Below are positions 26,438-28,755 of a stretch of DNA of 32,000 nt, in pieces (the first letter of the stretch is position 1; each line of letters starts with the position of its first letter). The stretch comes from Candidatus Electrothrix yaqonensis. Lineage in GTDB: Bacteria > Desulfobacterota > Desulfobulbia > Desulfobulbales > Desulfobulbaceae. The stretch is taken from assembly GCA_047651235.1 (NCBI GenBank), contig CP178758.1, positions 810,001 to 842,000 of the forward strand, read 5' to 3'. The notes under the pieces are model-generated. The model was given only the letters and a program-made list of their open reading frames with translations. It was not told the DNA's origin and ran no database searches. Made by a program: the position numbers and the translations under genes.

Positions 26438-26600
26438 AACATACCTCCCGGTATAACGGTAATAGGTAGAAGCAGGGAACCCGGCTGTCTCCTCCCTGGA
26501 GACCCGTGGCTTTCCGACACCGCCTTGCGACGGCTGTGGCTTTATCAGCTTCCGGTTTCCGCCGGAAAGCAGAGCACCCGCTTAGTTTAATTCAACTAAG
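26438..26600 (-). promoter_or_regulatory. Conserved structured 5' leader, copy A (riboswitch-like; GEMM-I-like features)
   Basis: Minus-sense: CUUAGU..ACUAAG hairpin, CUUUCCGG..CCGGAAG hairpin, AUAAAGCCAC, ACAGCCGUC-GCAA-GGCGGUGU hairpin, GGAAAGCCAC, CGG-GUCUCC-AGGGA-GGAGAC-AG-CCG, then the SD and ATG. Confidence 0.6.
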
Positions 26601-26664
26601 GATTGCCGATTGTTATAATGATAGACAGTTGAAGAAATCCCGACCGACATAAGTCACTCTGTCC

Positions 26665-27927
26665 CTATTTTATTCGGCGATTATAATCTATAATTAATTC
26701 ATACGTATCATCTGTCCGTGCCTTATCGCCAAATAACAGGTCTGAGAGATAATCCGTATCAATATCTTCATTATCGCTGACATTATCCAGAATTCTTTTG
26801 ACAAGCATTCTGTAAATTCTTTCTTCAAGATCACTGCAGGTCTTCACATCATCCACTAACGAAACCGATTTGTTCTCAGAATTTACCTTAAAGCAAAATG
26901 CTTTATATATCAGGTCTTTAATCTTCGCAGCATCAGTATCCTGAATATCCGGGATTGTTTTTTTAAGCCGTATCAGGAGGTTATTCCTATAATCTCTATA
27001 CGATGAAAATATTTTTTCTTCATGGAAGATATCAAAAGTATCTTTTATCCCCTGCTTCATAATTTCCGGCCTGACGAGTCGTATTTTCTGCTTCTTAAGA
27101 ATTATTTCATACAGATGCGGAACCTGCACAGAAGGAGTCTCAACATGTTTAGAAGAACTTCTGAGTGATACAGTTACATCTTTGTCAGATTCTTTAATTA
27201 CGATACTCTCCTGACATTGATTTAAAAATTCTGTAAAATTACTACAACCGTAATTATTTTCATCAAATGACGGATCAAGCCGCAGCATAACCGGTTTTAT
27301 GCTGACGCGAGGTGCGCTGCTGCTGCCTGATTCGGAAAAAATTATCTTCAATGCCTTTATAAGCAGATTCTTTGCATCATCAAAATCTTCTTGACTGCCA
27401 TTTTCTGATATATCGTCCTCCTTTATAAGGGCGGAATAAAATTTAAATTTATTACATGCTTTGATCCAGAACTGATTCGTCGTTTCCTGAACTCCAATTC
27501 CAATTATTCTTTTTCCCCTCTGTCGTACTTTTTGAGCAATTGATATATAATCACTATCTCCGCTGATCAACACAATAGTGTCTAAATGCGGTTGCTGAAT
27601 GCAGTCATCTAAAATATCAATGGCTATTCTTATATCAGAACCATTCTTTCCGTATTTCCCGCAATGATACATTTGAATCAGATCAATAGAATAATTCTGC
27701 AATTCAAAACTGTAAGCATGAAAAAAACTCCAGTTTGCATAAGATTTATTAATATTCACTTCTCCAATACTTGATATATAATCCATTATTTTTCTGATAT
27801 CAATAAAAGCAGGTTGCTTTGAATACATGTTGTCCTTATACCAGGACTCTCCCATTTTTAATGAGGAGAGAGATATATGGATATTTTCAAAGTCCCAATA
27901 TACAGCTACATTACACTCTGTGTTCAT
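26665..27927 (-). CDS. NYN-domain (PIN-like) ribonuclease with an OST-HTH/LOTUS domain and an unassigned C-terminal region
   Basis: 420 aa. NYN acidic motifs 'VAVYWDFENI', 'KNGSDIRIAIDILDD' and 'LISGDSDY'. LOTUS-like 'RLDPSFDENNYGCSNFTEFLNQC'. The gene is visibly AT-rich compared with its flanks. Confidence 0.85.
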   Translation of the reverse strand: MNTECNVAVYWDFENIHISLSSLKMGESWYKDNMYSKQPAFIDIRKIMDYISSIGEVNINKSYANWSFFHAYSFELQNYSIDLIQMYHCGKYGKNGSDIRIAIDILDDCIQQPHLDTIVLISGDSDYISIAQKVRQRGKRIIGIGVQETTNQFWIKACNKFKFYSALIKEDDISENGSQEDFDDAKNLLIKALKIIFSESGSSSAPRVSIKPVMLRLDPSFDENNYGCSNFTEFLNQCQESIVIKESDKDVTVSLRSSSKHVETPSVQVPHLYEIILKKQKIRLVRPEIMKQGIKDTFDIFHEEKIFSSYRDYRNNLLIRLKKTIPDIQDTDAAKIKDLIYKAFCFKVNSENKSVSLVDDVKTCSDLEERIYRMLVKRILDNVSDNEDIDTDYLSDLLFGDKARTDDTYELIIDYNRRIK

Positions 27928-28022
27928 TGATTACGCTCCGTTTCCTTTAGCTAACGACCCAACATGCAACGTTTTAGTGCACCTTGATCAATCTATAGGA
28001 AATCCATAGGAAATGCTACCCG

Positions 28023-28054
28023 AAAAAAAGATACGGCAGCCCATCCGGCTACCG
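28023..28054 (-). terminator. Intrinsic terminator forming the 3' end of the NYN-copy leader (candidate expression platform)
   Basis: Minus-sense: CGGUAGC-CGGAUGG-GCUGCCG (7-bp stem with one U-G pair), then UAUC and UUUUUUU. It lies 95 nt upstream of the NYN ATG. Confidence 0.65.
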
Positions 28055-28145
28055 GTGGCTTTTTGACACCGCCTCGCGACGGCTGTGGCTTTATCAGCTT
28101 CCGGTTTCCTCCGGAAAGCAGAGCGCCCGCTTAGTTTAAACTAAG
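28023..28145 (-). promoter_or_regulatory. Conserved structured 5' leader, copy N (upstream of the NYN gene)
   Basis: Its ~80-nt core differs from copy A at about 6 positions by eye. The GNRA loop is GCGA rather than GCAA. The 3' part is replaced by CCGG-UAG-CCGG plus the terminator. Confidence 0.6.
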
Positions 28146-28147
28146 GA

Positions 28148-28242
28148 ACGGGAATTAAATAACTGCCGCATTTCGTGGAAGCGATGCCCGTCATCATGTG
28201 CATCTCGATCAGGCAAACGTACCAGTTATTAAATCCTCATTC
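28148..28242. repeat. 95-nt insertion between the module motif and leader N, flanked by a 7-nt duplication (CTAAGGA)
   Basis: CTAAGGA at 28141-28147 and 28243-28249. In units A and B the sequences on either side are contiguous. The insert has an imperfect inverted repeat GGAATTAAATAACTG (28151-28165) / CAGTTATTAAATCC (28223-28236). Confidence 0.4.
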
Positions 28243-28273
28243 CTAAGGATTGCTTTATTTGTTATGATTCATG

Positions 28274-28296
28274 CGGAACGATTTGTGGCCGTTCCG
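28274..28296 (-). repeat. Module hairpin, copy N (CGGAACG-N9-CGTTCCG) next to ATGAATCATAACAAAT
   Basis: Perfect 7-bp stem, preceded (minus-sense) by TTTTCTCAGGCTGCGGAA and followed by CATGAATCATAACAAATAAAGCAATCCTTAG. Confidence 0.6.
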
Positions 28297-28388
28297 ATTC
28301 CGCAGCCTGAGAAAACGCGGCAAAGAACTGAACCGGTTCAGCCCTCTTTTCCCGAAACCCGTTCAGTTCTTCAAATCATGTCAAAGGA

Positions 28389-28598
28389 TTATCCCGCTGC
28401 CGGAGCAGTCTCCTCTGTGCCGGAAAGATCGCGGAGAAACATTTCCGCAGTCAGGGCCGCATCAACGGCTAAGATGGAATAAAAGAGGACAACATCAGGT
28501 AACAGGCCGAAAAACAGTTGGATATTACCGCGAACTGCCGGGCTGTTTGACTTGCTGAAACGGCTGGAGAGAAAGTTTGGATGGAATAAGGATTTCAT
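28389..28598 (-). CDS. Small membrane protein, family copy B (69 aa)
   Basis: ATG at 28598 with GGGAGG 6 nt upstream, the same arrangement as copy A: 'MKSLFHPNFLSSRF...VRGNIQLFFGLLPDVVLFYSILAV'. The 96-aa ORF in the track is a 5' extension into the leader. Confidence 0.55.
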   Translation of the reverse strand: MKSLFHPNFLSSRFSKSNSPAVRGNIQLFFGLLPDVVLFYSILAVDAALTAEMFLRDLSGTEETAPAAG

Positions 28599-28755
28599 AA
28601 CATACCTCCCGGTATAATAACGGTTAGAAGCAGGGAGCCCGGCTGTCTCTTCCTTTGGAGACCCGTGGTTTTCCGACACCGCCTTGCGACGGCTGTGGCT
28701 TTATCAGCTTTCCGTTTCCGTCCGGAAAGCAAGGCGCCCGCTTAGGTTAACTAAG
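28599..28755 (-). promoter_or_regulatory. Conserved structured 5' leader, copy B
   Basis: Collinear with copy A down to the SD. The second hairpin changes to CUUUCCG..CGGAAAG with pairing kept. The second junction is AAAACCAC. Confidence 0.6.

Follow-up and report, generated by a model that had tools for sequence, protein, structure and literature searches.

What do the structured RNA leaders on the minus strand of this part of the genome of the cable bacterium Candidatus Electrothrix yaqonensis sense, and how could they act on the genes that follow them? The stretch analysed (contig CP178758.1, positions 810,001 to 842,000; 32,000 nucleotides, here "the window", whose own numbering is used throughout) carries three such leaders, which we call copies A, B and N: copies A and B precede small open reading frames (ORFs), and copy N precedes a gene for a protein with a NYN domain. 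An earlier note on the same DNA had described three minus-strand leaders with common hairpins and had compared them with GEMM-I riboswitches, that is, with riboswitches of class I for cyclic di-GMP (c-di-GMP); apart from one junction motif, every element it described is found where it was placed. Taking all parts together, we consider it likely that copies A and B are c-di-GMP-I riboswitches with a strand-exchange OFF platform on the 5' side of the aptamer, that the first hairpin of the leader is a 5' stem, and that copy N is a decayed copy.

We scanned the whole window against Rfam 15, in which the c-di-GMP-I family (RF01051) has a gathering score of 35 bits. Exactly two matches lie above gathering, both are to RF01051, and both are on the minus strand: copy A with 56.3 bits and copy B with 52.6 bits. 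This covariance-model search, which the earlier note had asked for, establishes the family membership of A and B and bears out the proposed likeness to GEMM-I. The strand agrees with the one previously deduced from G-U pairs: a G.U and a U.G pair in helix P2 and a G.U pair in helix P3 form in the minus-sense transcript only. P2 consists of ACAGCCGUC and GGCGGUGU capped by a GNRA tetraloop (GCAA in A and B, GCGA in N), and P3 reads CGG-GUCUCC-AGGGA-GGAGAC-AG-CCG in A, GUCUC..GAGAC in B and CCGG-UAG-CCGG in N, both as described. Two details need adjustment: of the two junction motifs, AUAAAGCCAC occurs in all three copies, but the second is GGAAAGCCAC in A only (GGAAAACCAC in B, CAAAAAGCCAC in N), and the proposed outer pairing AGCC/GGUU exists but is merely the base of P3.

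Relatives were retrieved with two patterns. An exact leader pattern gave four loci, in Ca. Electrothrix marina, Ca. E. gigas and a Desulfobulbaceae metagenome-assembled genome, each with a c-di-GMP-I match followed by an ORF starting M[RK][ST]LFHS; an aptamer pattern gave 36 metagenome contigs. At least 40 related leaders are present in Electrothrix genomes and sediment metagenomes, and all tested relatives with a complete aptamer match the c-di-GMP-I clan. The relatives are close to one another, and the patterns that collected them are exact in P2; 37 leaders were aligned (alignment A2, whose columns are cited below), and 23 were used for hairpin 1.

In the Vc2 aptamer of Vibrio cholerae, the prototype of the class, the nucleotide at position 20 recognises G-alpha (PMC5888326, PMC6140456), and C44 of a P2 bulge forms an interhelical Watson-Crick pair with G83 of a P3 bulge (PMC4744006); for the functions of G20, A47 and C92 and of the C44-G83 pair we rely on PMC5888326, PMC4744006 and PMC6140456. 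The residue-level alignment of A and B to RF01051 shows that the junction J1/2 ends in the equivalent of G20, namely G26540 in A and G28699 in B (G28089 in N), and this position is G in all relatives too. J2/3 is AA and provides the equivalent of A47; this nucleotide is A in both A and B and in every one of the 37 relatives (column 90). J3/1 is xC and provides the equivalent of C92, which in the class forms a Watson-Crick pair with G-beta; the C is kept in A (C26476) and B (C28634), and column 129 is C in all 37 relatives. A GUC bulge in P2 supplies the equivalent of C44 and an AG bulge in P3 that of G83; all three copies have these nucleotides, which are invariant in the relatives, and the tertiary pair between them is predicted. 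Columns 90, 120 and 129 are informative because they lie outside the retrieval pattern.

Across the 37 relatives, the three-way junction is retained, with P2 100% paired, P3 94.7% and P1 83%, and with double-sided changes in one P1 pair (an A-U/G-C swap) and one P3 pair, P2 being fixed by the retrieval pattern. The compensatory variation invoked by the earlier note is thin among the three copies alone, but the helices hold up across 23 to 37 relatives. In the class, a GNRA tetraloop on P2 docks into a receptor in P3. The P2 tetraloop here is GCAA, GCGA or GUGA, and where the model has its 11-nt tetraloop-receptor segment the alignment shows a deletion in P3; absence of this receptor is common among c-di-GMP-I members whose loop is GYRA. 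Judging from sequence and family model, we have little doubt that copies A and B belong to c-di-GMP-I (GEMM-I) as canonical riboswitches, and not to the divergent or new class that had been suggested. That the leaders form a new class merely resembling GEMM-I is extremely unlikely. The J1/2-P2 segment is unusual (AAAG-CC-ACA-GCC versus the consensus AAAG-GC-AAA-CC, so that P2 has at its base CC/GG and an ACA bulge, where the class has GC/GC and AAA), and the short P3 without receptor would also fit a new class; however, the full-length matches to RF01051 are about 20 bits above gathering, and all binding-site and tertiary-pair nucleotides are present.

The ligand follows from the same positions. 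GEMM-Ib RNAs, which are specific for cyclic GMP-AMP (cGAMP), have A at the G20 position (PMC6140456). Because the equivalent in the copies is G and not A, c-di-GMP is the predicted ligand of A and B, and the suggestion of cGAMP in the earlier note is not upheld by the ligand-contact positions G/A/C. We consider it highly unlikely that the aptamers sense 3'3'-cGAMP or another dinucleotide. Deltaproteobacterial relatives such as Geobacter do use GEMM-Ib, and the Geobacter Gs1761 RNA shares fold, clan and deltaproteobacterial-type host with the copies; moreover, several relatives exceed the gathering score of the variant model RF03167 (c-di-GMP-I-GGC). In the E-value scan the top raw scores go to RF03168 (c-di-GMP-I-UAU) and RF03167. 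The window copies themselves, however, reach 52.6 bits for RF03167 (gathering 59) and 59.9 bits for RF03168 (gathering 65.9), both below gathering, and share with these variants the high raw scores but not the distinguishing nucleotides. By the variant-defining positions, which we inferred by comparing the three Rfam consensus lines, the GGC hallmark (G at the first J2/3 position) is absent, the 47 equivalent being A, and the UAU hallmark (U at the 20 and 92 equivalents) is absent, these equivalents being G and C. Six relatives (L003, L006, L024, L031, L038 and L040) pass the RF03167 gathering score with an A at the equivalent of position 47, and would probably be mislabelled by automatic annotation.

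Upstream of the aptamer each copy carries two further hairpins. The earlier note had included them in the GEMM-I-like leader; they are present, but they lie outside the GEMM-I aptamer and constitute a lineage-specific 5' extension. Hairpin 2 pairs CUUUCCGG with CCGGAAG in A and N and CUUUCCG with CGGAAAG in B, as described. It is found in the 37 aligned leaders with 92.6% pairing (pair 10-49 is C-G in 15, U.G in 14 and U-A in 5), and the structure of hairpin 2, P2 and P3 together is 95.6% paired. The sequence GGAAAGYUG, comprising the 3' arm of hairpin 2 and the next 3 nt (columns 47-57), is also the 5' strand of P1, where it pairs with CUGCUUUY (columns 130-137): P1 columns 50-57 reuse hairpin 2 columns 47-54, and the minimal P1 of Rfam uses the same nucleotides. 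Because the same nucleotides participate in both, hairpin 2 and P1 are mutually exclusive. The 5' arm of hairpin 2 and the 3' strand of P1 are near-repeats, with a median of 6 of 8 positions identical.

The 5' arm of hairpin 2, CUUUCYGG, is in addition complementary to CCRGGAGG at the ribosome-binding site, that is, to the Shine-Dalgarno sequence (SD) and its flank. The resulting anti-SD:SD helix (columns 4-12 with 155-162) is 94% paired in the 37 relatives and contains a covarying pair, 10-157 (U-A in 13, C-G in 11, U.G in 5 and other in 6, with a single C.A). Conservation extends to the CCRG flank of the SD, although the preceding linker and the downstream genes vary, and the structure that combines aptamer and anti-SD is 93% paired versus 39-54% when slid. 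Arm:SD duplexes have mean energies of -9.8 kcal/mol, compared with -5.6 when the arms are shuffled and -4.2 when the arms are paired with unrelated gene starts; in A and B the duplex has -14.0 kcal/mol, as against -4.5 +/- 2.5 for copy A with 16 unrelated gene starts. A second long-range pairing, which would join 5' UCAUAACA to UGUUAUGA across the start codon, appears in the minimum-free-energy (MFE) structures of A and B and was rejected: its duplex energies are no better than shuffled (mean z -0.2), and it also tracks subfamily, despite a C-G, U.G, U-A series (window, L010, L001). The 5' element U(C/U)AUAACA is complementary to UGUUAUGA at 26617-26610 with 26442-26435 and at 28773-28766 with 28603-28596, and also in L001 and L010.

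Median energies of the three competing helices are -11.9 kcal/mol for hairpin 2, -5.2 for P1 and -9.3 for anti-SD:SD, and the median difference between the ensembles with aptamer forced and with hairpin 2 forced is 1.2 kcal/mol, small enough that the binding of ligand could plausibly make up for it. In constrained partition-function folding of the 37 leaders, the unpaired probability of the SD is 0.37 with hairpin 2 forced and 0.08 with the aptamer helices forced, and forcing the aptamer lowers modelled SD accessibility in 34 of 37 leaders. The terminator scan found none between aptamer and ORF in A or B. From the strand shared by hairpin 2 and P1, the arm:SD complementarity and the modelled drop in SD accessibility, we infer control at the level of translation and an OFF direction: a translational OFF switch by strand exchange, with an anti-SD element upstream of the aptamer, is the most likely mechanism, at somewhat better than an even chance.

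According to this proposal, the aptamer is a P1/P2/P3 three-way junction in the leader of a small lineage-restricted protein gene, and its expression platform lies largely on the 5' side. In the absence of ligand, hairpin 2 would form, pairing the anti-SD strand CUGCUUUCYGG with GGAAAGYUG, the latter being also the P1 5' strand, and the ribosome-binding site would be comparatively open. When c-di-GMP is bound, the 3' strand CUGCUUUY would draw GGAAAGYUG into P1, and the freed 5' arm of hairpin 2 would pair with CCRGGAGG, so that translation would be repressed. The targets would be a small cable-bacteria-restricted protein family and, in relatives, secreted adhesin-like proteins.

Several results weigh against this proposal. 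P1 is weak (about -5 kcal/mol), and a U.U mismatch within it is invariant. Covariation in the anti-SD:SD helix consists of one pair only, that of the hairpin 2 structure is not above shuffles (123/500), and that of the whole structure is barely above shuffles, on some measures only, which is marginal because the relatives are close and were retrieved by an exact P2 pattern. CUUUC runs pair somewhat with any GGAGG. Three of the 37 leaders have no modelled SD effect, and in A and B the modelled SD contrast is about 0.3 versus 0.0, not fully open versus closed, the SD being partly paired in the free state of both (CUCCC:GGGAG in the copy B MFE structure). The weak P1 and the hairpin 2 covariation no better than shuffles would also fit the alternative that the aptamers belong to c-di-GMP-I but hairpin 2 is merely a structural or stabilising 5' helix ("P0"), with regulation by an ON switch, by Rho or RNase access, or by pairing of the SD with the J3/1-P1 3' segment. 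In particular, the copy B MFE structure has hairpin 2 alongside the CUCCC:GGGAG pairing that masks the SD without ligand. We nevertheless regard this alternative as unlikely: hairpin 2 and P1 cannot coexist, the conserved CCRG flank covaries with the arm across unrelated downstream genes, only the two window copies have CUCCC, its place being taken in relatives by UUGCC or UUACC, and the modelling favours OFF in nearly all leaders.

The strand-exchange proposal combines elements of known systems. With the c-di-GMP-I class as represented by RF01051 and Vc2, copies A and B have in common the three-helix junction, the GNRA-capped P2 and the equivalents of G20, A47, C92 and C44-G83, as well as an occurrence, in relatives, upstream of genes for surface or secreted proteins that is typical of the class; they differ in the P2 base already described, the GYRA tetraloop with a short P3 lacking the 11-nt receptor, the invariant U.U mismatch in P1, and the conserved 5' extension with the proposed anti-SD strand upstream of the aptamer. 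Vc2 itself reportedly represses translation by masking a distant ribosome-binding site (Inuzuka et al. 2018, cited in PMC11705072). In the Escherichia coli thiM thiamine pyrophosphate riboswitch, P1 captures an anti-anti-SD, and the freed anti-SD masks the SD. The three-strand logic proposed here is the same, but the switching strands of thiM lie 3' of or within the aptamer, whereas here the hairpin is transcribed before it. In the searchable literature we found no report of cable-bacteria riboswitches or of a c-di-GMP-I platform 5' of the aptamer. The class assignment is routine, since any Rfam annotation run would find the aptamer, and the anti-SD/anti-anti-SD logic is familiar; what may be new is an architectural variant with the platform upstream of the aptamer, of which the conserved 5' hairpin is a compact, testable example.

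Copy N, by contrast with A and B, scores under every gathering score, and the earlier note's use of it as the main illustration of the GEMM-I match does not stand. P2 is kept, but its foot is broken: GG has become AA at 28065-28064, which produces two C.A mismatches beside the pocket. The distal part of P3 has lost about 16 nt, and the 3' strand of P1 is absent, CGUAUCUU standing where CUGCUUCU is expected. The intrinsic terminator that follows is formed in MFE and centroid structures alike. At four loci with the three closest NYN homologues (57-69% identity) there is no c-di-GMP-I match even at E 0.1, and the flanks of these loci do not align; N-type lesions occur in 0 of 36 metagenome matches to a pattern satisfied by N itself. 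The NYN gene is probably horizontally acquired, because it has 35% GC versus about 50% around it. We read copy N as disrupted because of its low score, its lesions, the terminator, the leaderless NYN homologues and the lack of an N-like metagenome variant; it is very probably a recently disrupted copy, a relic and not a sensor, which would be cut off by the terminator ahead of the acquired gene.

It is very unlikely that copy N is instead a compact ON switch for the NYN gene, in which a ligand-stabilised AGCC/GGCU pairing blocks formation of the terminator CGGUAGCC/GGCUGCCG. Such a switch would explain why the 3' half of the terminator reuses the P3 3' strand and J3/1 (GGCU-GC-CG), matching the Rfam consensus, and why hairpin 1, hairpin 2 and P2 are intact; but it would have to operate with 28.4 bits, with mismatches in two P2-base C-G pairs at the pocket and no P1 3' strand, against a terminator that dominates the predicted structures, and with neither an N-like variant in the metagenomes nor a GEMM-I aptamer at the homologue loci. 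Two further observations concern this copy. Its leader contains at 28247-28141 (minus strand) an insertion of about 107 nt with 25-nt inverted arms (80% complementary) and CCTTAG on both sides, which may be an element like a miniature inverted-repeat transposable element or a long hairpin. Among the NYN homologues, L044 adjoins a McrB/EVE-type gene, and L041 is near a PIN-domain gene.

Hairpin 1, the 5'-terminal element of the extension, would be a conserved 5'-terminal stem. As described, it pairs CUUAG with CUAAG around varying loops, at 26600-26581 (A), 28755-28741 (B) and 28145-28131 (N), and it is flanked by GGCA..UGCC. Over the 23 leaders it is 80% paired, versus 23-44% with the partner slid, and five pairs are changed on both sides; pairs were counted manually, RNAalifold having given no structure on this region because of loop-length gaps. 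In 14 relatives, the distance from the end of a sigma70-like promoter (TTGACA-N17/18-TAnnnT) down to the aptamer is 62-91 nt; from such promoters both hairpin 1 and hairpin 2 would be transcribed in those relatives. No convincing sigma70 site was found directly upstream of hairpin 1 in the window copies. A TTGACA-N17-TAAGTT sequence about 170 nt upstream of copy B, spotted by eye, is a candidate promoter only.

Table 1. Positions of the leader elements, genes and module copies in the window.
Feature	Position	Strand	Description
Copy A, leader and ORF intact	leader 26607-26438, ORF 26437-26114	minus	
Copy A hairpin 1 domain	26607-26573	minus	GGCA..CUUAG-loop-CUAAG..UGCU
Copy A hairpin 2	26572-26546	minus	5' arm CUGCUUUCCGG, proposed anti-SD; 3' arm CCGGAAGCUG, proposed anti-anti-SD and P1 5' strand
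Copy A c-di-GMP-I aptamer	26550-26472	minus	RF01051, 56.3 bits; G20 equivalent 26540, C92 equivalent 26476
Copy A extended P1	26553-26546 with 26475-26468	minus	Column mapping on leader alignment A2
Copy A ribosome-binding region	26451-26435	minus	CCGGGAGG 26451-26444, UAUGUU, AUG 26437-26435
Small ORF A, 107 aa	26437-26114	minus	Identical (100%) to hypothetical protein ACL93V_03820, Ca. Electrothrix sp. YB6
Copy B, complete module	leader 28762-28599, ORF 28598-28389	minus	
Copy B 5' extension	hairpin 1 domain 28762-28733, hairpin 2 28732-28705	minus	
Copy B c-di-GMP-I aptamer	28709-28630	minus	RF01051, 52.6 bits; G20 equivalent 28699, C92 equivalent 28634
Copy B P1 3' strand	28633-28626	minus	
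Copy B ribosome-binding region	28612-28596	minus	CCGGGAGG 28612-28605, AUG 28598-28596
Small ORF B, 69 aa	28598-28389	minus	Paralogue of ORF A, BLASTP E 6e-10; family alignment
Copy N, hairpins 1 and 2 and first half of core intact	28152-28031	minus	Followed by terminator and 420-aa NYN gene
Copy N hairpins 1 and 2	28152-28095	minus	Intact, 93% identical to copy A
Copy N degenerate aptamer	28098-28023	minus	28.4 bits, best clan score, below gathering
Copy N intrinsic terminator	28054-28034	minus	CGGUAGCC-GGAUG-GGCUGCCG, then U7; terminator scan
NYN + OST-HTH (LabA/DUF88-type) gene, 420 aa	27927-26665	minus	Pfam; downstream of copy N
Fourth upstream element	26080-25987	minus	Downstream only a small-ORF C-terminus relic, 25830-25755

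The genes behind the leaders form a small ORF family and several groups of secreted proteins. The small ORF family has 9 cluster representatives among 1.8 billion, and its members (A, B and P0122-P0129) share an M-SLFHS N-terminus and a hydrophobic C-terminal block, FFGLLxDFxLFYxILAVDAALTAExFLR. Pfam and NCBIfam gave no match for the small ORFs and none for most of the downstream secreted proteins tested. The small ORF family is probably a cable-bacteria-specific small membrane protein. In relatives, the downstream genes encode members of this family, signal-peptide proteins with thrombospondin-3/GON domains, signal-peptide proteins with SdrD-B/prealbumin-like domains, and unannotated secreted families, several of which have an ECxxLIAGQxIEAGEVCV motif in common; leaders ahead of signal-peptide proteins include L006, L009, L015, L026, L027, L029 and L040, among others. 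The riboswitch-linked secreted adhesin-like proteins are a candidate c-di-GMP surface-protein regulon in Desulfobulbaceae, and the at least 40 leaders point to a c-di-GMP regulon of TSP3/GON proteins, SdrD-like proteins, unannotated secreted families and a tiny orphan protein family.

Whether cable bacteria have expanded a c-di-GMP-I sub-lineage with an inverted platform, providing reversible translational OFF control across a regulon of adhesin-like and small membrane proteins, seems to us evenly balanced; if they have, such a regulon would tie c-di-GMP to the surface biology of cable-bacteria filaments. To our knowledge cable bacteria have not yet been grown in pure culture, and a cis-regulatory map is for this reason one of few handles on their signalling.

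The minus strand from 28840 to 25750 is a decaying tandem array of one module, flanked by a CLC-channel gene (25317-23536) and by plus-strand pyrG/kdsA, and it illustrates the duplication, decay and interruption of riboswitch modules by an acquired gene. The order within the module is an upstream element of about 80-90 nt, hairpin 1, hairpin 2, a structured core of about 80 nt, the ribosome-binding site and the small ORF. An 89-nt repeat family joins copies A, B and N with 76-93% identity, and the window contains three occurrences of the 17-mer AAAGCCACAGCCGTCGC, 0.08 being expected by chance. The relic at 25830-25755 (minus strand), which ends in ..LIVDAALAAGIFLRAR* and lies downstream of an upstream element without a riboswitch, marks a decayed fourth module.

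The upstream element, or U-element, is a conserved stretch of 80-90 nt at every module junction (28840-28763, 28347-28257 and 26080-25987 in the window, minus strand), and it is also present in relatives L002-L004, L010, L016, L018 and L031. It contains two small hairpins, GYCGCC-UUUUCUC-GGCKGC and C(A/G)GAAC-N8-GUUC(U/C)G, in the second of which A-U alternates with G-C at one pair; AUCAUAACAAAUGGCAA comes after them. The element may serve as a specialised promoter, as a 3' untranslated region or terminator, or as further leader RNA. Directly after small ORF B, at 28372-28323, lies a near-perfect long hairpin, GAAGAACUGAAC..GUUCAGUUCUU, a possible terminator of ORF B; a weak match to Plastid-psbJ-4 on both strands at this position was dismissed as reflecting the long hairpin.

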